From Candidatus Eiseniibacteriota bacterium (GTDB lineage: Bacteria > Eisenbacteria > RBG-16-71-46 > CAIMUX01 > VGJL01): DNA of 64,000 nt. The position numbers and the translations under genes are program-made. The notes under the pieces were generated by a model. That model was not told where the DNA came from, did not search any database, and saw only the letters and a program-made list of their open reading frames with translations. Within the stretch, counting starts at the first letter, position 1; each line of letters begins with the position of its first letter. This document shows positions 4,475 through 50,924 of this stretch, piece after piece. The stretch lies in assembly GCA_963792585.1 (NCBI GenBank), contig CAWBWI010000001.1, positions 64,001 to 128,000 on the forward strand, in the 5' to 3' direction.

Positions 4475-5302
4475 CTAGCGGTACGATGCGCGGACGCTCC
4501 CCCAGGACGATCTCCGAACGGGGACCGTACCACAGTCGAACCCGCAATCGATCCCGCAGCAGTCCTCCCCACCCGCCCAGTTGGTGCCCCCTCGATTCGC
4601 GCACTCGCCCTGCGACAGTGCCAGGCAGGCTCCGTCGGCCAGACAACATGCTCCCGTGGGTTGCCCACACGTGATCCCCGGACAGTCGTTCCATCCAGCG
4701 GCGAACCAGCGAACCGTGCCGAAGCAACCGCACAGGTCCTCCACGGGAGGATTGCCGTCGTCCAAGAATTTCGCCTCGTTGGTGCCCGGATGCACCGTCG
4801 TGCTGAACCAGGCTCCCGGCCGATCGCAGGAGTTGTCGACCTCAAAGACATAGCATGCAAACGGATTCGCATAGGTTGGAGCGGCGTAGACGAATGCGGT
4901 CCCGGAGCACGGCGCCGGCCAGTCGGGAGTTGAGACCTCCTGAGGAAAGAAACCGCAAGCCCCGTGGGCTAAGACGGGATTCAGGAGGCTGGCATCGTAT
5001 TGAATGCCGAACTGCAGCGCACTAACCCCTGGACTGGATCCCGCGGGAAACGACGCCAGGACCCAGATGACCGTCCCGCTCGTCTTGTTCGTCTGCGTGA
5101 CGGCGCCCGTGCACGTGCCCGGATTGCCAAGTGGAGTCGTGCATGCCGTGTCGGTCGAATAGCTGTAGGTGTCGTCCGTGTGGACGATCAGGGCCCCGTT
5201 CGCGTTTCTGCCGGCGAGGGCCGTCGATGCCGCCATCGAGGCGGCCGCAATGCCGAAGATCAAGGCGATCCTGATGTATTGGTGCTCGAGCTTGGTATTC
5301 AT
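4475..5302 (-). CDS. Secreted Cys-rich protein with one GACC repeat and the WG C-terminal motif
   Basis: ATG at 5302; signal peptide ending ALA-GRN; paralogous to 39825..41351; ends TVPVRRSSWGSVRASYR. Confidence 0.75.
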   Translation of the reverse strand: MNTKLEHQYIRIALIFGIAAASMAASTALAGRNANGALIVHTDDTYSYSTDTACTTPLGNPGTCTGAVTQTNKTSGTVIWVLASFPAGSSPGVSALQFGIQYDASLLNPVLAHGACGFFPQEVSTPDWPAPCSGTAFVYAAPTYANPFACYVFEVDNSCDRPGAWFSTTVHPGTNEAKFLDDGNPPVEDLCGCFGTVRWFAAGWNDCPGITCGQPTGACCLADGACLALSQGECANRGGTNWAGGEDCCGIDCGFDCGTVPVRRSSWGSVRASYR

Positions 5303-5731
5303 GCTGATCCTTCCCGCGTGGCGCGCATAGCGCATTCTCTGCCGGCCGTTGACCCGTCCCATCCTGAAGACGCAGGAACCGTCCCGTTCTAACAGGCTCT
5401 GTTTTCTTGAGAGTGACCTGGTAGGGGCGCAGAATTATCATGGATGGCAACTGTGTGATTCTGGCCGAAGATGGGTGTGCGCGGCAGGGAGGATCCTACA
5501 TGGGGGACGAGGTCCCCTGTGATCCCAACCCATGCTTCGGCTTCCCGATCGAGAAGACAACCTGGGGACGGCTCAAGGCGACGTATCGCTAGCCGGCCGA
5601 ACCGCTCTCGAAGACTCCAGAGGGCCCGTATCCATCCGTGTGCGGGCCCTCATGGGGCGCCGCAGCCTCTCGAGAGTCTAGATGCCCTTCAGTGATTCGG
5701 CATCAGGCGCATCCTGCAGAAACTACTGCTT

Positions 5732-6379
5732 CTACCTGCTCTTGATGGGTGTGGCAGCGGCAGTCTTCGAGGCCTCTTCGGCGGCGGCCTTGTCGGCGTC
5801 AACTTGAGCCGCGGCAGCGGTCGCTATCGCTGCCTGCTTGCCCTCGGCGACGGTCTTCAGCCGGGCGAGCCCCTTCTCGATGTCGGTGCCGAGCATGTTG
5901 TCCATGTTCATGAACATGCCGAATGCTTTGCCCACGAAGTTGTGGTTCCCATCCATCGACCACGTCACGAACGAGCCGGTCGGCGTACCCGCGAGGGTGA
6001 GCGAATAGGTTGCCGTGGACTTCATCGGCTCCACAAACTCGAACTTCATGCCCACCTTCTGGCCAGGGACGCTCTCTTCGATCGTCATCTTGCCCTTGCC
6101 GACTTCCTTGTTGCCGTTCCACGCATACGACTGACCGACGCCCGCCGCCGGGCCCTCGAAGGTCTTCTGCATGTTGGGATCGAGCTTCTCCCACGGCGAC
6201 CCGAAGAGGACCAAGACACCCGCAAACTGATGGAGGTCGTTGAGAACACCGAACACGAGATCGGCTGGAGCAGCGACCTCGAGCTTGCGCTCGACGTGAT
6301 AGGTGGACGGCCGTGTGGCCACCACCGCTACGAAGAGGACCAAGACACCCGCAACACCGATGAGAATCTTCTTGAGCAT
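5732..6379 (-). CDS. SRPBCC (polyketide cyclase-like) family protein
   Basis: N-terminal TM helix; YHVERKLEVAAP...PWEKLDPNM...GVGQSYAWNGNKEVGKG...DIEKGLARLK; SD AGGAGG. Confidence 0.85.
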   Translation of the reverse strand: MLKKILIGVAGVLVLFVAVVATRPSTYHVERKLEVAAPADLVFGVLNDLHQFAGVLVLFGSPWEKLDPNMQKTFEGPAAGVGQSYAWNGNKEVGKGKMTIEESVPGQKVGMKFEFVEPMKSTATYSLTLAGTPTGSFVTWSMDGNHNFVGKAFGMFMNMDNMLGTDIEKGLARLKTVAEGKQAAIATAAAAQVDADKAAAEEASKTAAATPIKSR

Positions 6380-6467
6380 GGAAGCCCTCCTAAATGACTC
6401 TCAGTGACTCGGAATCAGCCGGCAACGGATGGGCATCGAACACGTGAGACCTCACCTGCCGCTCTCA

Positions 6468-6766
6468 TTTGGATTCCCGTCGAGACCCGCAAGGTCACGT
6501 TGCGGCCCGGATCATAGGCGAACTCCTTGTAGCGGCCTGACCCCTGGCCGGCCAGGAAAAATCGGCCATCTTCGCCGGAAAGATCTGAGCGCCCGGTTTC
6601 GGCGACCAGAATTCTTACATCGGCGACCGGGCTCCCGGACGCCTCGACAACCCGGCCGGTAAGGGTCGTCGATGCCGCGGCGGCCGACGCCCGCGTGGCC
6701 GTACTGGCGGGCGCGCTTAAGGAAGAGCACGAACCCGCTGAGCAGGGGCAGGCGCAGCTTCGACAT
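6468..6766 (-). pseudogene. Internally deleted, frameshifted TonB-dependent receptor remnant
   Basis: AGGAGG and ATG at 6766; signal peptide with a frameshift near 6720; carboxypeptidase-regulatory-like start (LTGRVVEASGSPVADVRILV...SGEDGRF) fused to a TBDR-like C-terminus (RYKEFAYDPGRNVTLRVSTGI). Confidence 0.6.
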
Positions 6767-7610: not shown

Positions 7611-9977
7611 CTACACGGAGCCGTCCGATTGCTCCGTGCGGGCGATGATCTCATCCTGCAGCACGCGTCCGAGATCGCAGAAGTAGTCGCTGTAACCGGC
7701 CACGCGCACGATCAGGTCGCGATGTTCCTGCGGCCGTTCCTGGGCGTTGCGAAGCGTCTCCGCATTCACGACGTTGAACTGGATGTGGTGGCCCCCCAAG
7801 CGAAAGTAGGTCCGGATCAAGGAGGCGAGCTTCTCGATCCCCTCTTCGCCCTCGAGCACCTGGGGAACGAACTTCATGTTGAGGAGCGTTCCCCCCGTGC
7901 GGAGGTGGTCCATCTTGGCCGCGGATTGGATCACGGCCGTCGGACCCCGGCGATCCATCCCCTGGACCGGGGAGATTCCTTCCGAGAGGGGAGTGCAGGA
8001 GCGACGGCCATCCGGCGTGGCGCCGGTCACGGAGCCGAAATAGACGTGGCACGTCGTCGGCAGCATGTCGATGTGGTAGCGCCCTCCGCGGAGGTTGGGC
8101 CGGCCCTCGATCGCGCGGTAGTAGGCGTCGAAGCAGGCGCGCATGATCTCGTCCGCCCGCTCGTCATCATTACCCCACTTCGGGGACTTGTTGATCAGGG
8201 TCAGCCGAAGGCGTTCGTTGTCCTGAAAGTCTTCCCGAAGGGCGCCGAGGATCTCCTCCATCTTGTAGTCCCCCGTCTCGTAGACGTGGCGGCGAATCGC
8301 CGCGAGGCTGTCGGTGATCGTCCCGATCCCGACCCCCTGGATGTAGGAGGTGTTGTACCGAGCGCCTCCCTCGTTGTAGTCGAGTCCATTGGCGATGCAA
8401 TCGTCTGTGATCATGGACAGGAAGGGCGCGGGCATTCGCTCGGCGTAGATCCGTTCGATCACGTCGTTTCCCCGTACCTTGACTCCCACGAAGTGTCGCA
8501 CCTGCGTTTCCCATGCATGAAACAGCTGCTCGAACGTCTTGAAGCGGGTAGGGTGACCAGTCTCGGGACCGAGCACGTGTCCGGTTCGAGGGTCGACCCC
8601 GTTGTTCAAGGCGAGTTCCAGGAGTTTCGGGAGGTTGAAGTACCCGGTCAGGATGTAGGCTTCCTTGCCGAAGGCGCCGGTCTCCACGCAGCCGCTGGTT
8701 CCCCCCTCGCGCGCGTCCTCGATGAGCTTGCCCTGACGTAGCATTTCCTCGACGACCCGGTCCGAGTTGAAGACGGAAGGATATCCGTAACCCTTGCGGA
8801 TGACGCGGCAGGCCTCGATCAGGAACCCCTCCGGGGTCTTCTGCGAGATCTGGACGTTCTGGCTCGGCTGCAGGAGGTGCAGCTCGTCGATCACCTCGAG
8901 CAGGAGGTAGCTGACTTCGCTCACGCCGTCCGAGCCGTCGCGCAGTTGCCCGGCAAGATTGACGTTTGCGAAGTCCGTGTAGGTTCCGCTCTCGGCGGCC
9001 GTCACGCCGACCTTCGGTGGCGCGGGGTGGTTGTTGAACTTGATGAAGAAGCAACCAAGCAGCTCCTTCGCCCGCTCGCGCGTGAGACTGCCGTCGAGGA
9101 CGCCCTGCCGGTAGAACGGGGCGATGTGCTGATCGAGGTGTCCGGGCGAGAAGGAGTCCCAACCGTTCAGCTCGGTGATCACCGCCAGATGGCAGAACCA
9201 GTAGGCCTGGAGCGCCTCCCGGAAATCGCGCGGGGCGCGGGCCGGAACGTGATCGCATACGGCGGCGATCTCCTCCAGTTCGGCCCGAAGCTGCAGATCG
9301 ATCGTGTGCGCGGCCATCTCTCTCGCGCGCGTCGCATGGCGGGCGGCGAAGAGCATCGTCGCGTCGGCGGCGATCGCCATGGCGGTCAGCTCGTCCCGCT
9401 TGTGCGCGGCGAGCGGATCGGCGCTCGGATCTAGCATCGCAAGCGCCGCAGCGATCTCGGTCTTGAAGTCGAGCATGCCCTTGCGATAGATCTTCCCGTC
9501 CGCGACGGTGTGACCCGGGGCTCGCTGCTCCATGAACTCGGTGAAGATCCCCGCGTCGTAGGCGGCGCGCCACTCGTCCGGAAGGCGGGCGAAGATCGCA
9601 TCGCGGAGGCTACGCCCTCGCCAGAACGGGATGATCATCTTCTCGTAGATCTCGAACGCCTCCGGGGAGACCGCGTAGCTCGTCTTCTCCCTGTCATTGA
9701 GCACGCGCAGGTCATCCAGGCTGTGGCAGGTCAGTTCGGGAAATGTCGGCGTCGCTTTGGGGGCCGGACCGCGCTCGCCCACGATCTGCTCTCCATGGCC
9801 GATCCAGATGGTTTTGCGCTCGCACAGATGACGGAACGCGAGGGCGCGCATCACCGGTGTCGGGTGGAATCCCTCATTCGCGGCATGGAATTCCGTCATC
9901 AACTCCGCCCGCTCCGTCGACACGAAGGGGTGGGCTCGAAGCGATTCTTCACGAAGGCGATCCACGCGATGGTTCAT
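7611..9977 (-). CDS. hypD: Glycyl radical enzyme, trans-4-hydroxy-L-proline dehydratase (HypD) type
   Basis: RVAGYS glycyl loop; GGTSGCVE Cys loop; HypD-like substrate-binding motifs at the expected spacing: EFMEQRAPGH, GWD, ESGTYTDF, LTGY (Cys+16), LPTT. Confidence 0.85.
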   Translation of the reverse strand: MNHRVDRLREESLRAHPFVSTERAELMTEFHAANEGFHPTPVMRALAFRHLCERKTIWIGHGEQIVGERGPAPKATPTFPELTCHSLDDLRVLNDREKTSYAVSPEAFEIYEKMIIPFWRGRSLRDAIFARLPDEWRAAYDAGIFTEFMEQRAPGHTVADGKIYRKGMLDFKTEIAAALAMLDPSADPLAAHKRDELTAMAIAADATMLFAARHATRAREMAAHTIDLQLRAELEEIAAVCDHVPARAPRDFREALQAYWFCHLAVITELNGWDSFSPGHLDQHIAPFYRQGVLDGSLTRERAKELLGCFFIKFNNHPAPPKVGVTAAESGTYTDFANVNLAGQLRDGSDGVSEVSYLLLEVIDELHLLQPSQNVQISQKTPEGFLIEACRVIRKGYGYPSVFNSDRVVEEMLRQGKLIEDAREGGTSGCVETGAFGKEAYILTGYFNLPKLLELALNNGVDPRTGHVLGPETGHPTRFKTFEQLFHAWETQVRHFVGVKVRGNDVIERIYAERMPAPFLSMITDDCIANGLDYNEGGARYNTSYIQGVGIGTITDSLAAIRRHVYETGDYKMEEILGALREDFQDNERLRLTLINKSPKWGNDDERADEIMRACFDAYYRAIEGRPNLRGGRYHIDMLPTTCHVYFGSVTGATPDGRRSCTPLSEGISPVQGMDRRGPTAVIQSAAKMDHLRTGGTLLNMKFVPQVLEGEEGIEKLASLIRTYFRLGGHHIQFNVVNAETLRNAQERPQEHRDLIVRVAGYSDYFCDLGRVLQDEIIARTEQSDGSV

Positions 9978-10867
9978 CCTGTTCCTCCGCCACTCATCAC
10001 CTCGAGCCCGTGCGCAGCGAGCCGGCGCGCGATCGCCTGGAGCCGTTCTGGTGTCGGCGTTTGGAACGATTCCGCCTGCGCGGGGGTCCGCATCCGGTCG
10101 CGCTTGTCCGTCCCCATCGTGTGATAGGGGAGAAGATGGATCTGTCGCGTGTGGGGCAGCCCCGCCACGAGACGTCCGAGCGCCTCGATTGCCTCATCGC
10201 CGTCATTGATCCCCGGGAGGACCGGCGTGCGGATCCAGATCGCGGCGCCCTCCTCGTCGAGGGTCCGGAGGTTTTCGAGGATCGGCGCGAGCGGCACGCC
10301 GGTTCGCTTCCGGTGCTCCGACTCGTCGAGGATCTTGATGTCGAAGAGGAACAGGTCCGTGACCTCGGCGACCTTCCGGATGAGGGCCGGGTCGGCATAG
10401 CCGCACGTGTCGACCGCGGTGGGTATCCCGCGCTCCCGGCAGCCCGCAAGGCAGGCCAGCAGGAAGTCCGGTTGCGCCAGCGGCTCGCCGCCCGAGAAGG
10501 TGACCCCGCCGCCGGACTCCTCGAAGAAGGGGCGATCCCGCTCCACCTCCAAGACCAACGTGACGGCGTCCCACACCTTTCCGATCAGGCGGCGCGCATC
10601 GGCGGGGCATGACTCGGCGCACGCCCCGCAGCGCAGACAATGGACCGGGTCACCGGTGGGGCAGACGTCGTGGCAGGTCCCGCACCCGATGCAGCGGTCG
10701 GGGAAGAGATGGATCTCCGGTTCGGGCGCACGCCCCTCGGGGTTGTGACACCAGGCGCAGGTGAGGGGACAGCCCTTGAGGAAGACGGTCGTGCGGATCC
10801 CCGGTCCATCGTGAATCGCAAACCGTTGAAGGTCGAAGCAGGTGCCCGTCGGTGAGTTCGTGGCCAA
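9974..10867 (-). CDS. Glycyl-radical enzyme activating protein (radical SAM, ferredoxin-like insert)
   Basis: HDGPGIRTTVFLKGCPLTCAWCHNPE; CIGCGTCHDVCP and CLRCGACAESCP; GGGVTFSGGEP; 4-bp overlap with hypD. Confidence 0.95.
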   Translation of the reverse strand: MATNSPTGTCFDLQRFAIHDGPGIRTTVFLKGCPLTCAWCHNPEGRAPEPEIHLFPDRCIGCGTCHDVCPTGDPVHCLRCGACAESCPADARRLIGKVWDAVTLVLEVERDRPFFEESGGGVTFSGGEPLAQPDFLLACLAGCRERGIPTAVDTCGYADPALIRKVAEVTDLFLFDIKILDESEHRKRTGVPLAPILENLRTLDEEGAAIWIRTPVLPGINDGDEAIEALGRLVAGLPHTRQIHLLPYHTMGTDKRDRMRTPAQAESFQTPTPERLQAIARRLAAHGLEVMSGGGTG

Positions 10868-12364: not shown

Positions 12365-12596
12365 CCGTATCGCGGACCGTTCGCGAGATTCGTGACGCGC
12401 GCGTCGCGCGGATGCACGATCGGAGCCCGTGGGTGCCGATCGATGAAGCGCGGCACCCGGCGGAGCACGGCGATGGCGCGTCCCCTTGGCCGGCATCCAC
12501 GCCCGCAGGCGGATCGCTTGATTCCACACACCCCTGCACGGTAAAATCCACAGCGGCCAAGCCATGCAATCCCAAGCAACTACGCAGGAGGTCGTC

Positions 12597-15050
12597 ATGC
12601 TTCGCGCCGTTCGTCGCTTCCAACTGCCGCTCATCGCCGGAGCCCTGCTCCTCAGCGCGTCGATCGCCCAAGCCGCCTCTCCGACGGATTCGAACACGCA
12701 CATGCGGATCGACGCGCAAGGCGCGCGGGCATTCGGCACGGCGCCCCATGCGAACGTGCCGGTGGGCGAGATGCCGCTGCGCCCCGATCCGCCGCAATCC
12801 AACTGGACGGCGCTGGGCCCCTTCGGGGGAGACGTGCAGGCGGTCGGCGTCTCGCCGACGAACGCGAACCTGATGCTCGGCGGGCTGGCCCCTTCCTATT
12901 TCGGCAATGGGAAGCTCTTCCGCTCGACGAACGCAGGGGCGACCTGGGTCGAGCAGACGGGGATGGGGGGCAAGAGCTTCTACGATCTCGCCTTCACGCC
13001 GACCGGCACGGCGTATCTCGGGACGACGGAATCGATCTGGCGGAGCACGGACAATGGAGTCTCCTGGGTTCACCTGAACCTCGGGATCGGCACCAACGAT
13101 GTCGTTCTCGCAGTCACCGTCGACCCCACGAACGCGAACACCATCTGGGCGGGCGTTTCCGATGCGATGGGCAACCAGACGCAGACCGTGCTCAAGTCGA
13201 CCAATGGCGGGACGAGTTGGGTGAACAAGACGCCCGCGATGTCGGCGATGGCCTGCCAGGGGATCTCCGTCGACCCGGCCAATGCAAACAAGGTCTACGC
13301 CTGCTTTGGCGGCGACTTCGGGGGTGGGGCTGTTTGGGTCTCCACCAACGGCGGCACGAACTGGACGAACCGCTCCGCGGGGCTTCCCGCCAATCCGATG
13401 ACCGACGTCGTGAAGGTCGGCAGCCGCATCTATGTGTGCGGCGGGCTGCTGTTCGGTTCTCAGGAAGTCGGTCTCTACACGTCCACGAACGACGGCGCCA
13501 CCTGGACCGCGCTCCATAGTCCCGCCTGGCCGAGCCGGGTGATTCGCGACATGGAGATCGATCCCGCGAACGCCGCGACGATCCTGGTCGGCAGCGACGG
13601 TCGAGGGGTCTTCAAGTCGACCGACTCGGGAGCGACCTGGAGCTATGGGATCGGCGGGTCCGGCGGCTTCTCCGTGCGGGCGGTCCGCTACGCGCCCGGG
13701 AGCTCGACGCGGATCGTCCTGGGACTGAGTTCCCTGGGCGTCTACCAGAGCACGGATGCCGGTGCGCAGTTCCTCGCGACGTCGGTCGGCATCGGCGCGC
13801 TCAACATATACTCCGTCGCCTCCAATCCGGCCCAGCCGAGCGAGATCGCAATCTGCTTCCAGGGAGACAACGACGGCGGCGTCTACACGTCGCTCGACAA
13901 CGGGCAAGCCTGGACGCTGGAAGGGTGCCCCAGCACACGCTGGAACACGGTGCGGTTCACGGACGACGGGGTGCTGCACGCGATCTCCGACGGCCCGACC
14001 AGCCTGGCGCCGGAAGGGGTCTACCGGCGCGCGCCCGACAGCGGAGTCTGGACGTGCCTCGGCCCCGATCAGGGAACGCTGTTCGAGTCGGAACTCAACG
14101 CGCTCACCTTCAGCCACCTCAATCCGAATCTGATCCTCGCAGGCGGCGCCGACTTCGGTGTGGCCGGCTATGAGGGGACTTGCTGGCTCTCGATGGATGC
14201 CGGCGCCACATGGAAAAAGGCTTACGAAGGCCCCGAGCCGAACGAGATGGTCTACGACATCTGGCTCGTCGAGGATGGCACGGACATGACGGCCGTGGCC
14301 TGCTTCTCGGACTTCGAAGCGGGAACCGGCGGCGCACTGAGATCGACCAACGGAGGCGTGAACTGGGCCAATGCGAGCGTCGGGCTCCCGTCCTCCGCGC
14401 GGGGCATCGATCTGGACGCATTTCCGGCGGACGCGAACACGATCTACTACGCCGACTCGTACTACGCGAACGGGTTCGGCGGTCTCTTCCGCACGACCGA
14501 CGCCGGCCTGACCTGGGCCTCGACGGGATACGGCGGAACGGGCACGGTCGGGGCGGTCGTCTGCGATGCGGAGCATCCAGGATGGGTCTACATCACCCGT
14601 CCGGATCCGGAGAAGGTCCTCATGTCGATCGACAGCGGCGCGACGTTTGCTCCGTTCAACAACGGCCTGGCCTTCGCCGGGTCGACACGCAGTCTGGCGT
14701 ACGCGCACGGACCGGCCCGCCTGCTCCTGGCGACGAGCTCCACTTCGTGCGTGACCGTGCTCCTGGATCCGGCCGCGGTCGGCGATGGATCGCTTCGGGG
14801 GCGTGGGCGGATCGCGGCCTACCCGAACCCTCTCCAGGCGGGCCGGGGTGTGCGCTTCGCTTTTGCGACGGCCGGCGCATCGAAGCTGACGATCCACGAC
14901 GCGGCCGGCCGGCGGGTGCGCACGCTCTCGGTCACGGGATCGACGGTGGAGTGGGACGGACGCGACGACCGCGGCGTGGCGGTGGCGGCCGGAACCTACT
15001 TCGCGCGCACGGGCGCCGGAGAGGCGGTCAAGATCGAACGGTTACGCTAG
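12597..15050 (+). CDS. Secreted BNR/Asp-box beta-propeller protein with FlgD-Ig-like C-terminal domain
   Basis: GGAGG and ATG at 12597; signal peptide; many SxDxGxTW repeats; AYPNP...IHDAAGRRVRTL...WDGRDDRG...GTYF. Confidence 0.85.
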   Translation: MLRAVRRFQLPLIAGALLLSASIAQAASPTDSNTHMRIDAQGARAFGTAPHANVPVGEMPLRPDPPQSNWTALGPFGGDVQAVGVSPTNANLMLGGLAPSYFGNGKLFRSTNAGATWVEQTGMGGKSFYDLAFTPTGTAYLGTTESIWRSTDNGVSWVHLNLGIGTNDVVLAVTVDPTNANTIWAGVSDAMGNQTQTVLKSTNGGTSWVNKTPAMSAMACQGISVDPANANKVYACFGGDFGGGAVWVSTNGGTNWTNRSAGLPANPMTDVVKVGSRIYVCGGLLFGSQEVGLYTSTNDGATWTALHSPAWPSRVIRDMEIDPANAATILVGSDGRGVFKSTDSGATWSYGIGGSGGFSVRAVRYAPGSSTRIVLGLSSLGVYQSTDAGAQFLATSVGIGALNIYSVASNPAQPSEIAICFQGDNDGGVYTSLDNGQAWTLEGCPSTRWNTVRFTDDGVLHAISDGPTSLAPEGVYRRAPDSGVWTCLGPDQGTLFESELNALTFSHLNPNLILAGGADFGVAGYEGTCWLSMDAGATWKKAYEGPEPNEMVYDIWLVEDGTDMTAVACFSDFEAGTGGALRSTNGGVNWANASVGLPSSARGIDLDAFPADANTIYYADSYYANGFGGLFRTTDAGLTWASTGYGGTGTVGAVVCDAEHPGWVYITRPDPEKVLMSIDSGATFAPFNNGLAFAGSTRSLAYAHGPARLLLATSSTSCVTVLLDPAAVGDGSLRGRGRIAAYPNPLQAGRGVRFAFATAGASKLTIHDAAGRRVRTLSVTGSTVEWDGRDDRGVAVAAGTYFARTGAGEAVKIERLR

Positions 15051-22258: not shown

Positions 22259-22798
22259 TCATGTCTTCTTGATTTTCTTCCTCGATGCCGCCAATCCAAT
22301 CAGCCCGGCGCCAACAAGGAGCAGGGTTGCCGGTTCCGGGATGGGTGTCACGTATTCGCGACCGAAGCTGCTGCTACCGAACTCGGAGATGCCGTTACCA
22401 GGATCCCCGGGATTGGTGTTGTTTGGGGCTTCATAGCCCGTCAACCTCGCTGTCCCGGTCGGCCCGTAAGCCCTCCCGTAGGAGATCCGCGCGATGGGAT
22501 CAAGGGCAACTGTCGCGACATCAAAGGTGTTTGTTGCGAGCGTGGCGTCCGTGCTCCTGGTCGCCGAATTCCCGCCCTGCCAATCCGTGCCGCTCTCTGG
22601 AATTCCATTGAGGACACCCGCAGAGCCGCTGCGATCAGCCGTCGGCTTGTTGGACACGTGTCCGAAACTCTGCGCCCATCCCAGCACCGGCGAGGCCGCC
22701 ACCGGGGGAGCGAAGATGATGGCACTCAAGGCCGTCACTGCCAACAGAGTCTGGAACTTGCCCATTCCACTCGATAGATCTCTCATCGATCTCTCCAT
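22259..22798 (-). CDS. PEP-CTERM sorting domain protein (start uncertain)
   Basis: Signal peptide; C-terminal PIPEPATLLLVGAGLIGLAASRKKIKK. Confidence 0.85.
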   Translation of the reverse strand: MERSMRDLSSGMGKFQTLLAVTALSAIIFAPPVAASPVLGWAQSFGHVSNKPTADRSGSAGVLNGIPESGTDWQGGNSATRSTDATLATNTFDVATVALDPIARISYGRAYGPTGTARLTGYEAPNNTNPGDPGNGISEFGSSSFGREYVTPIPEPATLLLVGAGLIGLAASRKKIKKT

Positions 22799-29457: not shown

Positions 29458-30339
29458 TCAGACCTCTCCCGATGGGCCCAGGCCGACCAGCGCTCCCTCC
29501 TCCATCAATGATGTGATGACTTCCGCCGCATCGTCCGGCGCCGCCCCCAGGCGAATCGCCTCTTCACACAGATCCTCGAACCGGCGGGGGGTGGACGCAA
29601 AACTGAGCAGAGCGAACAGTTCCCGAGTCACTTCCGCAATGCCGACGGGAAACCTCACCCGCGGGCCGTCGTCGCGGACCAGTTCCAGGAGCAGCGGCTC
29701 GTCTTGCTCGGGATCCACCTGGGTGCACGGAACGGCCCGCCCCGGGGCCAGCACTGCCGCGGCAAGTTCCGCCCCGGACGCAGGGAGATCCGCATAGATC
29801 TCGTCATGCAGATCGGCCGTTCCCTCCGCCGCTTCGTGCAGTGCCTTGTCGGGCGATCGCTGGAGCAACGATCCCGGACCTCCGGTGGCCGGCGCTACGG
29901 CTGGAGCGCCACGACGAAGTCGCGCGATCGCCTGTTCCAGCCGGACCAGATGGGTCAATCGGCGGTCCGAAAGAGCTCCCTTCAGCGAGAGCGCGATCAG
30001 GTAGTCACCGAACGCGATCGCCATCGAGCCGCGCCCGCGCACGCACAGGTGGAACTCGAGCGAGGAGAAGAAGCCGATCGGCTGTCCCGGCGGGCCTCCG
30101 GCCGCCATGTAGAGCGCTAGACTCGTGGGGTACTCCTGAGCGAGGACGGTCAGGGCCCTCGACGGCCGCCCGGAATCGGCGCGCCAGGCACGTGGGTCCG
30201 AGGAGGCGAGCCAGGACCGTTCCTCCTCGGTGAGGTCTTCGCCGACAAGCGCATCCGCGGGGGTGGCCACGACGCGCGCCGCGTAGCTGGCATCGAACAG
30301 CATCCGCACCATGATCCGCTGAAGGGCGCGGGCGCTCAT
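29458..30339 (-). CDS. Putative MNIO partner protein (DUF2063-like)
   Basis: Directly downstream of the DUF692 gene; LAQEYPTSL; LTHLVRLEQAIARL; winged-helix-like tail ITSLMEEGALV. Confidence 0.65.
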   Translation of the reverse strand: MSARALQRIMVRMLFDASYAARVVATPADALVGEDLTEEERSWLASSDPRAWRADSGRPSRALTVLAQEYPTSLALYMAAGGPPGQPIGFFSSLEFHLCVRGRGSMAIAFGDYLIALSLKGALSDRRLTHLVRLEQAIARLRRGAPAVAPATGGPGSLLQRSPDKALHEAAEGTADLHDEIYADLPASGAELAAAVLAPGRAVPCTQVDPEQDEPLLLELVRDDGPRVRFPVGIAEVTRELFALLSFASTPRRFEDLCEEAIRLGAAPDDAAEVITSLMEEGALVGLGPSGEV

Positions 30340-30346
30340 CCCGCGC

Positions 30347-31255: not shown

Positions 31256-31476
31256 GTCTCCACTGTACAGGTTGGAAGACCGCCGAAGGGAGAGTCCTGG
31301 GCGTTGAGGGCCGAGTCCCCCTATCCACTCGAATCCCGCGGGAAGGCACTCCTGTAGTCGAACAGCCGGGGGTGGCAACCAGGACCACAACAACCAACGA
31401 CACCATAGTGCGTTGGAGGATCAAGCTCCCGCCCAGTACAGGTGCGGGGGTATCCTCTTCTGGAGGAGAGACAACA

Positions 31477-39824: not shown

Positions 39825-41351
39825 TCACCGGAAGGCCGCCTTGACCCGGCCCCATGTGGTGCGCTCCACGGGCGTCGACGCGCACGGGTATGGATCGCAG
39901 GGCACACCGTCTCCCTGGTACTCCCCATCAAGATCATCACACTCCTCTGGCGTCGTGATCTCGCAGGATCGAGTGCCGTAGATGCAACAGGCTCCCAAGT
40001 GGGGATGCGTGCAGTCTTCTGTCTGGCAATCCGTACCAGACCCCATCGGATGCCCGCCGTGCGCGAGGCATTCCTCCGGCGTCAGGTAGTCACAGCTCCC
40101 GTCAGGGAAGCAGCACGCCTGCGGTGGCTGCGGGCAAGGGTTCGGGTCACAATCCGTGCCGTATCCCTGGGGTTCGCCGTTGAGCTGATCACAGACCGCT
40201 GCGGTTTCGAAGCGGCAGTCTCCATTGTCCAAGCAGCAAGCCATCGACGGCTGTGGGCAGGGGCTCGGGTCGCAGAGGACGAACATTCCATGGAAGATGC
40301 CCCCCTGCTCGAGGCAATGAGACCATTGCTCATAGATGCACGACCCATCCGGGAAGCAGCAGGCGCCATCCACGCCCATACACGGATTCGGCTCGCACGG
40401 CATGTCCATTCCCTGCCAGAAACCTCCCTGCTGCCGGCACTCATCGGCTGTCACGGCGACGCAGCGACCGTCGCCAAGGCAGCATGCGCCCAGAGGTTGT
40501 GGACAGGTATCGTGGGGATAGCAAGGGACGAAGTCTCCCTGGTAATCCCCGCCATCTTCAGCGCACTCAATGCAGTTGAGAGCCCGGCAGCGCCCATCGT
40601 GGAAGCAGCAGGCGCCCACCACCTCCACGCAGGGATTCGGGTCGCACGGGACTCCGAGGGTGAAGATGCCTCCCAAGTCGGTGCATTCCGTCTCCGGCCA
40701 AGTGATCTGGCACCGTCCATCACAGAGGCAGCAAGCACCGAAGGGGTCCATATAGATCGGGCATTGATTCGTGCCTGTCCCGTCCCAGCGCACGACCCCG
40801 AAGTTCGTGCAAAGGTCCTCTTGCGCTGGGCCGGCGTCGTCGACGAACTTGGCTTCGTTCGTGCTCGGATACGTGCGCGTGCCGAAATAGGTTCCTGGTC
40901 CCTCGATGTAGAAGACAAAGTAGTAGAAGCGGAATACATGTTCATAGACCGGTGCGCCAAGGGCGATCACGTTGCCGAATCCCCACTCTGGCCAGCCCTC
41001 ATCTCGGAGTTCGATGGGGTACGGCCCGCACGGGCCGAAGGTTTGAAAGGATTCTTGACCCGCCGGGATGTTGTGGTCGATCCCGAACTGGATCGCCGTC
41101 ACGGCAGGCGACATCTCCGGACGGAACGCGGCAAGCAGCCAGATCAACTGCGGGAACTCGAGCCCCTGTGTCCCGTTCGGGTCGAGCTCTTCGCATACGG
41201 TCGGGACCCCGGGAAGCTCGCAGTAGAAGGCCGGGGTGTAGATGACCGTGTTGTCAGCATGGACGACCATCGCGCCGTTCCAGTTACGCCCCGCATAGGC
41301 GGGGCCGCTGAGCAGCGCCAGAGTCAGGAATGCTCCGGTAAGATGCCTCAC
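39825..41351 (-). CDS. Secreted protein with seven Cys-rich xACC repeats and the WG C-terminal motif
   Basis: GTG start after AAAGGAG; signal peptide; 7 x [GMQ]ACCxxxGxC...C...G...C.P.PC; ends TPVERTTWGRVKAAFR. Confidence 0.85.
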   Translation of the reverse strand: MRHLTGAFLTLALLSGPAYAGRNWNGAMVVHADNTVIYTPAFYCELPGVPTVCEELDPNGTQGLEFPQLIWLLAAFRPEMSPAVTAIQFGIDHNIPAGQESFQTFGPCGPYPIELRDEGWPEWGFGNVIALGAPVYEHVFRFYYFVFYIEGPGTYFGTRTYPSTNEAKFVDDAGPAQEDLCTNFGVVRWDGTGTNQCPIYMDPFGACCLCDGRCQITWPETECTDLGGIFTLGVPCDPNPCVEVVGACCFHDGRCRALNCIECAEDGGDYQGDFVPCYPHDTCPQPLGACCLGDGRCVAVTADECRQQGGFWQGMDMPCEPNPCMGVDGACCFPDGSCIYEQWSHCLEQGGIFHGMFVLCDPSPCPQPSMACCLDNGDCRFETAAVCDQLNGEPQGYGTDCDPNPCPQPPQACCFPDGSCDYLTPEECLAHGGHPMGSGTDCQTEDCTHPHLGACCIYGTRSCEITTPEECDDLDGEYQGDGVPCDPYPCASTPVERTTWGRVKAAFR

Positions 41352-42088: not shown

Positions 42089-42883
42089 CTACCGGAATGT
42101 CATCTTGACCCGACCCCAGGTGGTGTTCTTTGTCGGCGTGGGCACATCGTGCTTCACGGACGGGACCGCGAGGTACTCGTCGGGAACCTGGAGGAAGCTC
42201 GAGGCCCAGTTGGTGAATTGGTCTTTCAGGAAGTAGGTCGGCGCCTGCCAGTTCGGGACCTCCAGCCGGTAGAGGACCAGGTGTGTGCTGTCCACCGGCG
42301 CATACTCCACCCCCTGATGGCGCTTCCAGCATGGATTGCAAAGGTACGTGGCGGACGAGACGAGCTGGCCCTGCTCGTGGAACTGATCCCGCAGCCGGAC
42401 GTCTACGCCAGGCGAGGGGCCGACGACCCTGTAACACAGAAAGTGATTAATGTCGGTCGGGGGAGGTGGAGATTCAGGGTTCTGCGTCTTGCGCGCGGGG
42501 AGCAGCAGGAAGTCGAGGTACTCGACCTCGAGGGGCTGGCCGCTCCCGAATTGATTGTCGACAAGCACGCTGCGCGTGAACGGTTCGTCGGGCAAGTCCC
42601 ACCAGGTCATGTGCGCGGTCGAATCGCGCGGCGGGAACTCCTGACCCATATGGTACTTCCAGGCCGGGTTAAGAAGGCGTTCGAGCCGCGTCGTTACGAG
42701 CGGCCTATACTCCGTGTAGAACTGGTCCCTTGCTTCGAACGTGATCGGTTGGTCGAGTGGACCCGTCAAGTGGTAAGTCCAGTAGTGCGTCGGATCGATC
42801 TGCGCAGGTGCCTGAGACGGCACCAGGAGTGAAACAAACAGTACCGCAGCCCACGCAAGCCACGGCGTAGCGTTCTGCTTCAT
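42089..42883 (-). CDS. Secreted protein with an internally repeated HxxxY...DQF module and the WG C-terminal motif
   Basis: GGAGGA and ATG at 42883; signal peptide; four HxxxY/W...[DN]QF units; ends TPTKNTTWGRVKMTFR. Confidence 0.8.
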   Translation of the reverse strand: MKQNATPWLAWAAVLFVSLLVPSQAPAQIDPTHYWTYHLTGPLDQPITFEARDQFYTEYRPLVTTRLERLLNPAWKYHMGQEFPPRDSTAHMTWWDLPDEPFTRSVLVDNQFGSGQPLEVEYLDFLLLPARKTQNPESPPPPTDINHFLCYRVVGPSPGVDVRLRDQFHEQGQLVSSATYLCNPCWKRHQGVEYAPVDSTHLVLYRLEVPNWQAPTYFLKDQFTNWASSFLQVPDEYLAVPSVKHDVPTPTKNTTWGRVKMTFR

Positions 42884-43970: not shown

Positions 43971-46900
43971 ATGCCGCGGAGATTCCTGCTCGATCATTGT
44001 CGGCGAACGCCTCGCGCGGCCGGCGCTTCAGTCGCTCCCATCTCACTCGCCGCTTTTCTGATCCTCCTATCGCTCTGGGCGTACGCTTCCCCAGCCAGTC
44101 CAGCCCCCGGCTGGTCGCCCGACTTCGCGCCGCCGGGCCCCGGCGGCGCCGTCCAAACTAGCATCTCTTACCAGGGCGACCTGATTGTCGGGGGGAACTT
44201 CGCATCGATGGGCGCGCTGCCGGCCCGCAACATCGCCCGCTGGGACGGCTCGACATGGCACGCATTCGGAGCAGGCGCGAACAATCGCGTCACCGCCTCG
44301 ATCATCTACAACGGGGACCTAATCGTGGCCGGCAACTTCACGTCGATCGACGGGGTTGCGGCGAACCGGATCGCGCGGTGGGACGGGTCCACCTGGTCGC
44401 CGCTGGCGGGCGGAATCGAGGGCGGCGTCACCAGCCTCGCTGTCTACGAGGGCGAGTTGTATGCCGCCGGCGACTTCCGTCACGCGGACGGGATCCAGGT
44501 CGAGAGCATCGCCCGCTGGAACGGCACGGCGTGGGCTTCGACCGGCTTCGAGCACTCGCCGTACTACTGGCATGCCGCGTTCAGCCAGCTGATCGTCCAC
44601 GCCGGAGCGCTGTTGGGGGCCTGGAGCATCGTGCCGGGAGTGGGCGAAGTGATCGAATGGGCGAGCTATCTTGCCAGCTGGGACGGACAGACGTGGACCA
44701 ACGGGTGGCCCGGTATCCTTCCGAGACCTACCTCGCTCATGCCGACCTCACTGGTCGTCCACGGCGGAGACCTGTACGCATCGGGTCTGTGGTCCGACGG
44801 ACTCGACGAGGCCTTTCACGTCGCCCGCCTGGTGAACGGCGAGTGGGAGCGAATCGGCGCTGAGTTCCCTGATCAGGACATGCTGTTGACCAGCTACCAA
44901 GGTCGGTTGCTCGTGGCGCAGGGGTCCTCCGGCGGACGGGGCCGCTCGTTCGTCTCCGAGTGGACCGGATCGGAGTGGAGGCGGCTCGCCACGGGTCCGC
45001 TTGGTCCGGTCGGCACATTCGGTCAGCATGATGGCGAGCTGATCGCAGGCGGCACGTTCGGCTTTGCGGACGGTCCGCCTGTCCGCGGTCTCGCGGGATG
45101 GAACGCCGAGCGCTGGCGCTCCTTCGGCGAGTTCCCGGGAATGGGGTGCGACGGCAATGTTCAAGCGATCGGCGCTGCCCCGGATCCCGACCACGTGGTC
45201 ATCGCCGGAGCCTTCCAATTCGCCGGCCATGTGCCGGCGGAGCAGGGCGCGATTCTCGACGACGCCGGATGGCAGGCTCTGCCCGCCTCGCAGCCCTACA
45301 CCGGTCTCTCTCGCTCCACGACGCGGATCGCGTTTCTTGGTTCCGACATCTTCGCGAACGGCAGCACCGAGTGGTGCGGCAACCACACCTGCTACGACGT
45401 CGACCGATTCCGCGATGGCGATTGGGAGCATCTGGCGCAGTTCAATGACGTGACCTTCGCGCTTCACGCTGCGGGCGGTCGGCTGTATGTCGGCGGCTCG
45501 TACTACCGCGTCGGCAACATGCCGGCCTCCAAGATCGCGGCGTGGGACGGCCACACCTGGTCATCTCTTGCGACGAGCCTGCACGGCTCGGTCCTCGACA
45601 TCACCTCCTTCAACGGCCAGATCGTCGCGGGGGGCGCATTCGACGGCACGGAGGACGGATCGACGGCGGCGCCGCGCGTGGCGCTGTGGGACGGAGCGCG
45701 CTGGAGCGGCCTCGGCGATGGCCCGGGCTATGTCGTGAACGCGGTCGTGGAACATGCGGGCGGGTTGGTCGTTGCGGGCAGCACCTCGAGGGTGGGCGAG
45801 CCGACGGTCTACCACGTCTCCCGTTGGGATGGGCACGCCTGGTCTCCGTTGGGGGACGCGCCCGACAAGTCGATCGACCGATTGGCGGTCTACCGTGGCC
45901 GCCTCATCGCGAGCGGAAGGTTCACGCACTTTGGGGTCGCGGAGGCGTCCTACCTCGCGGAGTGGAACGGTCTGGTTTGGATTCCATTCGGTGGAGGGAT
46001 CTCCGGCCGTGTGAACGGTCTCGCCGCGCGCGGGGATGACTTCTACGTCGTTGGTCAGTTCGATATGGCGGGTCAAACGCCGTCGTGGCACATCGCGCGA
46101 TGGTCGGAGACGCTCGCCGCGCCAACGGAGTTCGTCGTGGCCCCCGCCGAGAGCACCGCGACCCTCACATGGACCCTGCCCGAGGACCCCGACGTCGTCG
46201 GCCTCGTCGTGCGTTACGCGGAGGGCGACTATCCGACCGGCATCACGGCCGGCGAGGCGCTCCCCGGCGGATCTGCCGACGGTTTCTTCCCGGGCGAGCC
46301 GGGCAGCCGGTTCCAGATCGTGCATCCACAGTCCGCCGACGGCGGGACGACCTGCTATGCCGCCTACGCGATCACGGCTGACGGCTACCTTTCGACGCCG
46401 CTCTATGCGAGCTTCCACCGTGCAGACCTGACTCCGCCGAGGTTGGACGTGATGACCACGCGGGCGCCGTCGATCGGCGATTCGATCGAGGTCGCGTTGA
46501 CCTCATCGGAGCGGCTCGACTCCTCGGGCACGGCGATTCGCATGGACGGGCGAAGCCTGCCCCTGCGAACCGACGACGCGTCGGGGATGCGCTGGCGCGT
46601 GCGCATGCCGGTTCCGGAGTCGGGTGCGTCGCTGCAGCTCGATGTCTGCGGCACCGATCCCGCGGGAAACGCAACGTGCCGGACGATTCACCTCTCCGGC
46701 AAGCGGATTTTCTTCCTGGAAGGGGGGAGCCTCGTCAGTCCCGATGGGAGGCTCACGCTGGATGTGCAACCGTCGGGAGGCGGCACCGATCGGGTGATCA
46801 GCATCGTCTGGGATCCGGCCGATCCGGCCGGTGAACATGTCTACCGCATCGGCCCGGACGGGGCATCGGTCTCACGGGCACTTCTGCAATATCGCTACAC

Positions 46901-47354
46901 CGATGAGGAACTCGACGGGGCGGATCCCCGTCAAATGGTGCTCAGGCTCTTCCCACCGGATGCAACTCCCTCGTACGTCGATCCGGATCAACGGGTGGTA
47001 CGCGCATGGATCAATCGGCTAGGCGTCTGCCGTGCCGGGTTGACCGCGCATCAAGCGAGTCAGTTCCTCGACCCGGAATTCCTGCGGCTCGAGCCGCCGC
47101 GCCCCAATCCGATGTTGATGGTGGGGCAGTTCGCGTTCGAGCTTCGGGATCGCGTCGATGCCGAGGTCGCGATCTTCGATGTGACGGGTCGGCGCGTTGC
47201 GCAGCCATTCCGCGGGGTGGCAGGTCCCGGGCGGCAGGTGGTCACGTGGAACGGAAGATCGGACGATGGCCCCGACGCGCCGAGCGGGATCTTCTTCGTT
47301 CGCGTCTCGACGCCGGGCGCGCAGGCGGTCGAGCGGATCATCCGGGTGCGGTGA
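43971..47354 (+). CDS. Secreted beta-propeller (WDG repeat) protein with Fn3-like and FlgD-Ig-like domains
   Basis: GGAGG and ATG; repeated GGxF...IARWDGxxW units; ATLTWTLP; PNP...IFDVTGRRV...WNGRSDDG...SGIFF. Confidence 0.85.
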   Translation: MPRRFLLDHCRRTPRAAGASVAPISLAAFLILLSLWAYASPASPAPGWSPDFAPPGPGGAVQTSISYQGDLIVGGNFASMGALPARNIARWDGSTWHAFGAGANNRVTASIIYNGDLIVAGNFTSIDGVAANRIARWDGSTWSPLAGGIEGGVTSLAVYEGELYAAGDFRHADGIQVESIARWNGTAWASTGFEHSPYYWHAAFSQLIVHAGALLGAWSIVPGVGEVIEWASYLASWDGQTWTNGWPGILPRPTSLMPTSLVVHGGDLYASGLWSDGLDEAFHVARLVNGEWERIGAEFPDQDMLLTSYQGRLLVAQGSSGGRGRSFVSEWTGSEWRRLATGPLGPVGTFGQHDGELIAGGTFGFADGPPVRGLAGWNAERWRSFGEFPGMGCDGNVQAIGAAPDPDHVVIAGAFQFAGHVPAEQGAILDDAGWQALPASQPYTGLSRSTTRIAFLGSDIFANGSTEWCGNHTCYDVDRFRDGDWEHLAQFNDVTFALHAAGGRLYVGGSYYRVGNMPASKIAAWDGHTWSSLATSLHGSVLDITSFNGQIVAGGAFDGTEDGSTAAPRVALWDGARWSGLGDGPGYVVNAVVEHAGGLVVAGSTSRVGEPTVYHVSRWDGHAWSPLGDAPDKSIDRLAVYRGRLIASGRFTHFGVAEASYLAEWNGLVWIPFGGGISGRVNGLAARGDDFYVVGQFDMAGQTPSWHIARWSETLAAPTEFVVAPAESTATLTWTLPEDPDVVGLVVRYAEGDYPTGITAGEALPGGSADGFFPGEPGSRFQIVHPQSADGGTTCYAAYAITADGYLSTPLYASFHRADLTPPRLDVMTTRAPSIGDSIEVALTSSERLDSSGTAIRMDGRSLPLRTDDASGMRWRVRMPVPESGASLQLDVCGTDPAGNATCRTIHLSGKRIFFLEGGSLVSPDGRLTLDVQPSGGGTDRVISIVWDPADPAGEHVYRIGPDGASVSRALLQYRYTDEELDGADPRQMVLRLFPPDATPSYVDPDQRVVRAWINRLGVCRAGLTAHQASQFLDPEFLRLEPPRPNPMLMVGQFAFELRDRVDAEVAIFDVTGRRVAQPFRGVAGPGRQVVTWNGRSDDGPDAPSGIFFVRVSTPGAQAVERIIRVR

Positions 47355-48984: not shown

Positions 48985-49155
48985 TCGTAGCCTTGATCGT
49001 GATCCCAGGCTGAGCGCAGGCATGCTGACGTTTCGCGTTCGTGCTGATTCACAGGTCACGATCTTGGAAGTAAGGGGCCGACGCCGGTCGCGTCCGTCGA
49101 ACAACCGGCGGCCGCACAAGCCCGCCGGTTGCCTCGACGTCAACCTATCCGCCGA

Positions 49156-49515
49156 TCATGCTGCTTCGGGATGGTACTGAGCGCTCCCGAATCCAAGGAT
49201 CGGCCAGAAGATGAAGGACAGCAGCAGGAGCCCGATCGCGAAGCCGATGTCGTATCCGAACTTCCTGGAGAGGCGCACGTAGATGATGACCGCGACGATC
49301 ACGTTGACCAGTGGGACGAACATCAGCAGCACCCACCAGAGCGGCTTGCCGACGATCTCGAGCAACACGATGACGTTGTAGATCGGGACGATGGCGGCCC
49401 ACCCCGGTTTGCCAGCCTTCACGTACACCTTCCAGCACGATGCGATCATTAGCACGAGGAATGCTAAGTAGAGGATAGACACGATCGGATTGGCGAACCA
49501 TCCCTTGTCGAACAC
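49156..49515 (-). CDS. DUF5684-like membrane protein
   Basis: WKVYVKAGKPGWAAIVPIYN...LSRKFG...ILGFGSAQY; GGGGGAG with GTG start. Confidence 0.85.
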   Translation of the reverse strand: MFDKGWFANPIVSILYLAFLVLMIASCWKVYVKAGKPGWAAIVPIYNVIVLLEIVGKPLWWVLLMFVPLVNVIVAVIIYVRLSRKFGYDIGFAIGLLLLSFIFWPILGFGSAQYHPEAA

Positions 49516-50231
49516 ATCTCCCCCCTTGCCGGCGCGAGAGGCGTCATCGGCCCTCGCGACCCTGCTTGACGGGTCCAAACTCCCCATGACCGTGCGGAGA
49601 TCTTCTCCGCATCCCGACGGAGGCGCTTGAATTCACGCGCTCCATGAAGCCGAACTCGAACTCCACACCGAGGTTGAGGCGTGCGGACTCCGGTCTGGTG
49701 CGGGGCATGATGCTGCGGGCTGTACTCTCTTCCAGCGATGGAAGTCCGTGCCACGTCTGCGCGTAACTCAATCGCAGGCAAGGTACGAGCGCATTTGGGG
49801 GGTGTCAAGGAAGAAGCGGGGGGGCTGCCCCGGCCGGTCCGTCGAGGTCGGTGGCGGGGCGCCCAACCTGGTGCGGGCGGCAATCCGGCGCCGACCTTGC
49901 GCCAACCCCGTGCCGACGACGGCGACGACTTTGACGGTGATCTCGTGTCGGCGGTTGGGACGCTTTCGAGGGCGATCTCGTGCCAGCAATGGCGGCCATT
50001 CATATGTGGCCTCTTGTCGACGACGGGGGCGACTCGCTGGCGACCACGGTGGGGCGACGGTGGCGACCCCGCCGATCTCGACCTAGCATGCGAACCCGGC
50101 GAATCCCTATGGCGCCAGGTCGTCGTTGGTGCTAAAATCAGCCCGCGGTACGGAGAATCATAGTCTGCAATTCCAAGCCTGCTCACGCCGACTGCCTCCG
50201 TGCATGCCACTTTTGCCAAGGGGGTCCCTTG

Positions 50232-50924
50232 ATGAGACTTTTGCGATCGCTTGTCATCATCCTGGCGGTCGGTTTCGCAATGGCTCCGGCCGTCGCCCTC
50301 GCCGACTGGACCGACAACTTCGATTCGTACGTGACCGGCACTGGCCTTCATGGTCAGGGTGGTTGGCACGGATGGGACGGCAGTTCTGGTGCCGACGCCA
50401 TTGTGACCGATTTCGTGGCGTTGAGTTCACCCAACTCCGTCAACGTCTCTGGTCCGTCTGACATCGTGCACGAGTACGGCGAGACGGCCGGGCTGTGGGT
50501 CTTCACTGCGTGGCAGTACATCCCCTCCGACTTTTCGGGGCAGAGCTACTTACTGCTGCTGAACACCTACAACGACTTCGGTCCGTACAACTGGTCCTGC
50601 CAGGTCTCTTTCAACAGCGTCGGCAATGTTGTCACCTCCGATCCCGAAGGCGCGACGTTGCCGATGATCACCGGGCAGTGGGTGGAGATCCGCGTCGAGA
50701 TCGATCTCGATGTGAACATGCAGACCTTCTACTACGGTGGCCAGCTGCTCTATCAGAAGAGCTGGACCGAGGGCATGTCCGGTGGGGGAGCCGACTACTT
50801 CGGAGCGGTCGACCTGTTCGCGAATGCCGCAAGCGCGATCTACTACGATGACCTCTCTCTGATGCCGCCGGCCACGCCGACACGCACCACGACCTGGGGT
50901 CAGGTGAAGGGGTTGTTCCGGTAG
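50232..50924 (+). CDS. Secreted ConA/lectin-like beta-sandwich protein with the WG C-terminal motif
   Basis: Signal peptide; DNFDSY...QGGW; GQWVEIRVEIDLD; YYDDLSL; ends TPTRTTTWGQVKGLFR. Confidence 0.8.
   Translation: MRLLRSLVIILAVGFAMAPAVALADWTDNFDSYVTGTGLHGQGGWHGWDGSSGADAIVTDFVALSSPNSVNVSGPSDIVHEYGETAGLWVFTAWQYIPSDFSGQSYLLLLNTYNDFGPYNWSCQVSFNSVGNVVTSDPEGATLPMITGQWVEIRVEIDLDVNMQTFYYGGQLLYQKSWTEGMSGGGADYFGAVDLFANAASAIYYDDLSLMPPATPTRTTTWGQVKGLFR

Follow-up and report, generated by a model that had tools for sequence, protein, structure and literature searches.

A short peptide at the end of secreted proteins, termed the TWG tail after its Thr-Trp-Gly core, was investigated in a 64,000-nucleotide stretch of the genome of a Candidatus Eiseniibacteriota bacterium (GCA_963792585.1, contig CAWBWI010000001.1, positions 64,001 to 128,000; hereafter the window) and beyond it. 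The TWG tail is a real C-terminal tag that occurs across several phyla and is unlisted in family libraries. It is a portable C-terminal peptide of 17 residues, predicted to consist of a short linker and an amphipathic helix, and is best filed among the sorting signals associated with the T9SS (type IX secretion system), as a new variant. The tagged genes of the window are the following (window coordinates, strand in brackets):

4475..5302 (−): secreted protein 1, 275 amino acids (aa), member of the genome's largest passenger family (41 members) with a Cys-rich repeat, ending in a TWG tail
4475..4528 (−): TWG tail (W−8 to the terminal R) and stop codon of gene 1
5440..5592 (+): gene remnant of 50 codons, comprising a single Cys-rich repeat and, at 5539..5592, a TWG tail, without signal peptide
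39825..41351 (−): secreted protein 2, 508 aa, homologous to gene 1, with several consecutive Cys-rich repeats, ending in a TWG tail
39825..39878 (−): TWG tail and stop codon of gene 2
42089..42883 (−): secreted protein 3, 264 aa, with DUF7450 (Pfam) and a TWG tail
42089..42142 (−): TWG tail and stop codon of gene 3
50232..50924 (+): secreted protein 4, 230 aa, with an unnamed domain and a TWG tail
50871..50924 (+): TWG tail and stop codon of gene 4

The four open reading frames, their translations and the terminal 16-mers before the stop codons were exactly as described in an earlier reading of the window (the original prediction), which had overlooked the fifth tail in the remnant at 5440..5592. 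Its assignment of the four proteins to three unrelated families was confirmed: proteins 1 and 2 align as homologues (39% over 214 aa, E 1e-37), and proteins 3 and 4 match neither these nor each other. All four starts are signal-peptide-like by a crude sequence heuristic, as had been proposed. No NCBIfam family was found on the four proteins, and the Pfam matches were limited to DUF7450 in protein 3 and, below threshold, cohesin in protein 1. The tail is retained in all 14 homologues of protein 3 that were returned, and two named homologues of protein 4 come from Candidatus Eisenbacteria. Gene 2 is covered by RNA-library contigs of close relatives in three runs, which is a weak hint of transcription; gene 3 was not covered, which shows nothing.

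The position of the tail was analyzed in the whole source genome (5.4 Mb, 7 contigs, 84% complete). A score matrix built from 105 tails identified 116 frames carrying the tail; since it was built from those tails, the matrix cannot serve as a test of these frames. At matrix scores of 15 or more, nothing lay further than 17 residues from a stop codon. In a six-frame scan, the core motif was located nine residues from a stop 111 times, compared with 1 to 10 times at every other distance from 5 to 19. Among 3662 crude gene calls, into which the tagged frames had been forced, 109 terminal matches were found versus 4 internal ones, with 0.21 terminal matches expected from the internal rate. This peak and this ratio show that the tail is not a chance pattern, and the original prediction's concern that the motif might be equally common inside proteins was not borne out. 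A shorter tail pattern without the stop codon, whose counts were at background level, was dropped.

The tail had been described as having an invariant WG, V and terminal R at a fixed spacing to the stop codon. W and G are indeed invariant, and they are the sole invariant positions among the 116 tails, but the residue at W+3 is I in 53, V in 48, L in 14 and M in one tail, and R occupies +8 in only 107. In 105 of the 116, the stop codon directly follows +8, which places the Trp nine residues before it. Around the core, W−7 is T/V/S, W−6 is P (87 tails) or A (15), W−5 is T/V/I, W−1 is T/S and +4 is K/R, while +7 is aromatic in 114 tails. The net charge is about +2.4, and G+1 is combined with a small residue at +5 in 84/116. 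The claimed absence of a transmembrane (TM) helix was upheld (highest 19-residue hydropathy within the last 40 aa of tagged proteins, 1.58).

The proteins preceding the tail, referred to as passengers, are diverse. With the Cys-rich repeats masked, 111 passengers formed 52 families, the largest with 41 members; the tail is not confined to one homologous family. A signal peptide was assigned by a crude rule to 86 of 109 tagged genes (79%) versus 503 of 2981 other genes (17%), which supports the expected co-occurrence of tail and signal peptide; the same rule assigned one to 124 of 218 genes with a T9SS C-terminal domain (CTD). Tagged proteins are small (median 240 aa, compared with about 695 for CTD frames). 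At C2:291916-293914(+), three lipoprotein-like genes in tandem end in TWG tails, and a close paralogue (C2:1757-2476) stops just before the tail. Paralogues with decayed tails that have lost the Trp were found at C6:941274-941843(−) and C1:311278-312246(+).

No Pfam or NCBIfam model for the tail was found, and no description of it, motif spellings included, was found in the searched literature, with subscription papers, supplements and about 1.7 million PMC articles outside reach. The original prediction that the tail does not fit LPXTG, PEP-CTERM, GlyGly-CTERM or T9SS CTD signals agrees with its lack of a TM stretch and of any family match and with its predicted helical structure; it corresponds to no characterised sorting signal in the libraries. 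TIGR04183, PF18962 and PF13860 did not match the four window proteins. The TM helix required after the motif by GlyGly-CTERM/rhombosortase and LPXTG/sortase signals is absent; the enzymes themselves were not searched. Dockerins are duplicated calcium-binding loop-helix modules of about 60–70 aa, which the tail, with 17 residues, no acidic loop and no Pfam dockerin hit, does not match.

Signals of the PEP-CTERM/exosortase (PF07589, TIGR02595; PF09721) and IPTL-CTERM types resemble the tail as short C-terminal tags on many small exported proteins and share its passenger domains. The PEP-CTERM signal, however, needs a TM helix and a basic cluster, both absent in the tail, and neither PF07589 nor TIGR02595 matched the four window proteins. 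Among the best 120 of 516 homologues of protein 4, whose ends were classed by regular expression and by eye, 74 carry a TWG tail and 37 a PEP/IPTL-CTERM-like TM tail; the remaining ends are other TM tails (2), a dockerin-like domain (1) and other ends (6). The source genome encodes two exosortases and 11 PEP-CTERM genes, one tagged gene adjoins a PEP-CTERM paralogue, and both tags begin with TP[VI] in this genome. These swaps, the adjacent pair, the common start and the two exosortases would fit a tail recognised by an exosortase, a rhombosortase or a tail-specific protease in a system without relation to the T9SS. We regard this as highly improbable: the tail has no TM helix, and an exosortase, although present in the source genome, was not found in 42 of 46 genomes with the single-copy tailed gene described below and in 5 of 16 tag-rich genomes, which makes it an unlikely reader; rhombosortase and Ctp proteases were not searched. 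Three homologues of protein 4 (P0118, P0077 and P0115) end either in a short 'YLPxIxK' tail or in PTAV followed by a TM helix and a basic cluster; two were scanned and gave no NCBIfam match, and these ends may represent further uncatalogued C-terminal tags.

Swaps with the T9SS CTD were found as well. Nine of the 111 passengers have a CTD-bearing paralogue that aligns up to the junction, some via Cys repeats only, and several switches between CTD and tail place TPV/FPT in register with SAI/SGI. As the alternate ends of the passengers are PEP-CTERM or CTD at the same junction, the tail occupies the slot of a sorting signal. Genes with the other two signals are present in the window:

35028..39356 (−): protein of 1442 aa immediately downstream of gene 2, whose type A T9SS CTD scores above the TIGR04183 cut-off
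12564..15050, 43971..47354, 54218..56734: further CTD proteins
22259..22798 (−): PEP-CTERM protein

The PEP-CTERM gene shows that a third C-terminal sorting system coexists in the source genome.

The type A CTD (TIGR04183/PF18962), which is carried by PorV and cut by PorU, resembles the TWG tail in several respects. Both are portable C-terminal signals on unrelated cargos with Sec signal peptides, both are found at the same junction position on paralogues, and a PorU-type motif starts most of the single-copy tails. In addition, the tail co-occurs with SprA, PorV and PorU and is physically fused to the CTD in Poribacteria-type proteins. In contrast to the CTD, a β-sandwich of 70–100 residues, the tail has 17 residues and is predicted to be helical; it lacks motifs B, D and E, usually has Pro after the predicted scissile bond in the source genome and was not found in the GldM-positive genomes searched. 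CTDs bind PorV through β-strand motifs (PMC11969387, PMC10994853), and in the reviews consulted, T9SS signals are folded domains and GldLM powers the system (PMC10202324, PMC10994853). The short CTDs of Prevotella intermedia (40–51 aa; PMC11969387) demonstrate that T9SS signals can shrink while the PT/GI cleavage motif is kept; however, these form a three-stranded sheet with motifs B, D and E, modelled on PorV, whereas the tail keeps the front end and drops the sheet. CTDs of types B and C, which have cognate PorP/SprF shuttles (PMC12618676, PMC10202324), are comparable as separate signal classes with separate carriers and with uncleaved signals as anchors, but they are folded domains of 100–235 aa, and type B shuttles adjoin their cargo genes.

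The source genome encodes SprA, PorV and PorU, as expected of a host of T9SS cargo. SprA is present in several pieces and frames (C4:15479-21645(−)), and this split, like that of other long genes of the genome, is probably due to assembly indels. Eight PorV-family genes scored over the cut-off, and 17 C25 matches include a PorU-like protein of 1375 aa, whose catalytic His and Cys are invariant in 19/19 aligned sequences. Terminal CTD hits amount to 281, the CTD being of the PF13860 type. GldM gave no match in this 84% complete genome; GldL, GldK and GldN were not searched. Among own-phylum and tag-bearing genomes, 55 of 58 contain SprA. The neighbours listed for the source genome included neither a PorV-family gene over cut-off beside a tagged gene nor a conserved machinery gene beside the PorV genes. 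At loci L002–L009, several paralogues of the PorV family are encoded immediately downstream of a large variant-CTD protein, resembling type B cargo-shuttle pairs.

Fusions of tail and CTD were detected in metagenomes. After removal of 24 out-of-frame loci from 120, there were 87 distinct proteins in which a sequence of the form [ASG]V-x-P-x-GK-xxx-TWGxVK-xxx continues without a break into the L[YF]QNYPNPFNP sequence that belongs to a type A CTD. For the one fused protein tested in the Atlas, the nearest clusters were Poribacteria CTD clusters. The claim that the tail never occurs together with a CTD therefore holds for the window only, given these fusions and the single protein among the 116 of the genome that has a CTD-like domain before the tail. 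The latter (C3:1272738-1273190(−)) is a secreted protein of 150 aa consisting of a stand-alone CTD-like domain and a TWG tail; no other tagged protein of the genome combines the two. As the helix abuts the CTD in the fused forms, the tail might bind CTDs or other tails in trans, with G+1 and the small +5 residue (84/116) as a helix-packing motif, and the small tagged proteins might ride with the larger CTD cargo or build a surface layer. This hitch-hiking or self-association is very unlikely in our estimation, as the tail is not confidently packed on its own domain in AlphaFold2 models and Glu is found at +5 in 13 of 51 single-copy members.

The tail is widespread. The corresponding DNA pattern including the stop codon matched 113 of 121 genomes of the own phylum, up to 97 times per genome, compared with 3 matches of the reversed pattern in all. 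In GTDB genomes, at least 127 distinct matches were obtained, all ending in a stop codon, and 126 of those listed score as tails; their labels comprise Eisenbacteria, Krumholzibacteriota, Latescibacterota, KSB1, Zixibacteria, Ignavibacteria, Kapaibacterium and others. A match labelled Bacteroidia (L064) was set aside as unrelated, having no signal peptide. All 14 matches on viral contigs (IMG/VR, L390–L403) are true tails of the host type, most of them on proteins with signal-peptide-like starts. Judging from the translations, several of these genes are located among phage-type genes (nuclease, SSB, ParB-like); their products are possibly surface or exclusion proteins.

About 20 of the 127 GTDB matches listed represent a protein of 130–150 aa comprising a signal peptide, an Fn3-like domain and the tail. 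That genomes of Bacteroidota, KSB1 and Zixibacteria encode exactly one small secreted tailed protein is new here. In Bacteroidota (phylum around G121), the full-length gene was found in 46 of 121 genomes, with one copy each. All 46 contain SprA (96/121 overall) and PorU (45 over cut-off), and none has GldM over cut-off (29/121 overall; GldL, GldK and GldN were not searched). The gene is thus present in 46 of 67 SprA-positive, GldM-negative genomes and in none of 29 GldM-positive or 25 SprA-negative ones, and the phylogenetic profiling suggested for the tail yielded a co-occurrence with SprA and PorU (46/46 Bacteroidota carriers). Two of 27 pattern-positive genomes (G191 and G212) were excluded as they do not hold members of the single-copy family, and 12 pattern loci from 75 gene-negative Bacteroidota genomes were chance frames. 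In the phylum of the KSB1-labelled G122, 52 of 61 genomes contain exactly one tail (7/7 fetched are of the Fn3 type), and in that of the Zixibacteria-labelled G251 this applies to 18 of 61 (13/13 fetched have a different small domain). No homologue of either passenger was found in the source genome. No conserved machinery gene was found next to the single-copy gene; its neighbours are, depending on the lineage, maf, pyrR/pyrB, rex or sigma-70.

The tail is the most conserved part of the single-copy protein, with TWG, K and F invariant in 51/51. Its junction reads [ST][AGS][VI] in 39/51, compared with 16/972 control windows, and resembles the PorU sites PT/GI (PMC11969387) and T/E/D/N|G/A/S (PMC10202324) of the literature. 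The Fn3-like domain is directly followed by a type A CTD in 11/11 other, longer proteins fetched. For two family members, AlphaFold2 predicted an Fn3 fold and a terminal helix of modest confidence (predicted local distance difference test score of the tail 65–78). No NCBIfam family is common to more than two of the 51 members, PDB sequence search and Foldseek returned generic Fn3 matches only, and the Atlas returned unnamed clusters. When representatives were searched with a profile, multi-Fn3 proteins dominated the results, and 28 of 150 belonged to the family. In the source genome, four small secreted Cys-rich proteins with an 'IGPITCP'-like end and a weak Fn3-like profile match are located beside a radical SAM gene (C3:698800-702048).

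The occurrence of exactly one copy per genome in three phyla, the exchange of the passenger domain in Zixibacteria as if only the tail mattered, the strong conservation of the tail and its lack of a PorV-binding fold could indicate a tail that attaches to the T9SS on its periplasmic side without being translocated. In that case, the single-copy protein would be a stoichiometric accessory (a plug, a pseudo-substrate inhibitor of PorU in transit or an occupant of SprA/SprE), and the many tagged proteins would be periplasmic ones parked at this site; PorU held latent by a bound hairpin provides a precedent (PMC10202324). This is an unlikely alternative, since 116 different occupants of one regulatory site are hard to picture, the passengers are of kinds that have surface-sorting signals elsewhere, and the source genome lacks both single-copy passengers. 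Similarly doubtful is a T9SS-independent envelope tether, in which the basic amphipathic helix would bind membrane lipid, lipopolysaccharide or an unrecognised outer-membrane or S-layer protein, and the overlap with the T9SS would reflect shared ancestry. The charge and amphipathicity of the tail, its exchange for PEP-CTERM, a dockerin-like domain or other anchors, and a homologue in genome G140 that keeps only the W/F/K pattern are in accordance with such a tether, and co-occurrence is cheap because the T9SS is near-universal in these phyla. However, the invariant Gly, the fixed distance to the C-terminus and the terminal Arg are more suggestive of a shaped pocket than of lipid, the tail is absent from the 25 SprA-negative Bacteroidota genomes, and it is fused in front of the CTD and associated with a PorU-type motif.

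The reading we favour, at slightly less than an even chance, is that the tail is a T9SS-linked docking and sorting signal. It would most likely be read at the PorU attachment module, and would be cleavable if the scissile position is followed by a small residue and retained if it is followed by Pro. The tail would likely dock Sec-exported proteins onto the outer-membrane T9SS of bacteria without the GldLM motor, and docking would bring them to the cell surface. The free-tail end xL[YF]R resembles the start of the first CTD strand, which suggests CTD truncation as the origin of the tail; it may descend from the first CTD segment (cleavage motif, TWGxIK and first residues of strand 1), cut before the PorV-binding body. 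The putative helix would present W0, I/V+3, L+6 and Y/F+7 on one face, K+4 and R+8 at the edge and G+1 and the small +5 residue on the opposite side, and would bind a protein site. This site is most likely on the PorU attachment module, because in the fused forms the helix follows the scissile bond and precedes the CTD. Where the scissile position is followed by a small residue, as in the single-copy family, the tail would be cut and its passenger attached or released; Pro, found there in 87/116 tails of the source genome, would block cutting, so that the tail stays as a lasting tether. One small tailed protein per genome may be the old state, from which Eisenbacteria-type lineages and their phages would have extended the tag to many cargos.

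Several observations weigh against this docking signal. Lacking the β-sheet motifs that bind PorV, the tail cannot work as a type A CTD does. A quick tree of the PorV family (61 proteins from 11 genomes, one row mis-framed) revealed no clade private to tail-bearing genomes. SprA-positive genomes without the tail (21/67 SprA-positive, GldM-negative Bacteroidota without a clear copy, and all 8 of the 121 own-phylum genomes without a tail match) indicate that the tail is dispensable for the T9SS. Five of these 21 genomes were re-searched with a wider profile, and one (G140) keeps a syntenic homologue with a divergent tail; beside pyrR, five copy-less genomes showed a clean loss between fur and pyrR in G240 and nothing in the four others. 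The GldM-positive genomes are probably one clade, so the profile is not independent evidence, and the Bacteroidota pattern may perhaps reflect two or three events among non-independent kin. Junctions of the source genome and of Zixibacteria mostly depart from the published PorU motif (Pro, or L/S-D-V), and the junction lies at W−4, W−5 or W−10 depending on the lineage. CTD-bearing homologues were found for only 4 of the 52 passenger families of the source genome, one of them via the CTD-like domain, and a type A CTD end was found on none of the best 120 of 516 protein 4 homologues, although the length window would have admitted one; their swap partner, PEP-CTERM, is an inner-membrane sorting signal. 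Finally, three tagged proteins are lipoprotein-like and would already be anchored.

The interpretation given in the original prediction stood in so far as exported proteins from many families share a portable tag found strictly at the C-terminus, with no TM helix, no library model and a link to the T9SS CTD through the junction swaps, the fused forms and the co-occurrence with SprA and PorU. Its suggestion of a minimal alternative to the CTD is plausible, but the tail lacks PorV-binding motifs and is not exclusive of the CTD outside the window. A more far-reaching proposal, which we consider possible but doubtful, is that of a fourth, peptide-sized class of T9SS signals: a single helix from the CTD front that engages PorU/SprA without a PorV-bound fold, belongs to an ancient motor-less T9SS of at least six phyla, was kept on one dedicated small protein in cultured Bacteroidota, expanded to about 3% of Eisenbacteria genes and was borrowed by their phages. 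A helical tag of 17 residues tied to SprA- and PorU-positive genomes with undetected GldM would add a T9SS signal class, point to cargo selection by the motor-less systems of many uncultured phyla, provide a very short display tag and hint at where dozens of hypothetical proteins per genome are localised. A cultured Ignavibacteria species (L121) has the single-copy gene, which opens this candidate-phylum tag to deletion and fusion experiments.

Further features were observed in the window. At 29458..31393(−), a modification enzyme of the MbnB/TglH/ChrH family of ribosomally synthesised and post-translationally modified peptides is encoded together with a partner gene. The pair lies downstream of a TonB-dependent-receptor-like gene (32097..34805), the C-terminus of which is repeated at 29196..29417. 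The region 7611..10867(−) encodes a pyruvate formate-lyase (PFL)-like glycyl radical enzyme and its activating radical SAM enzyme.

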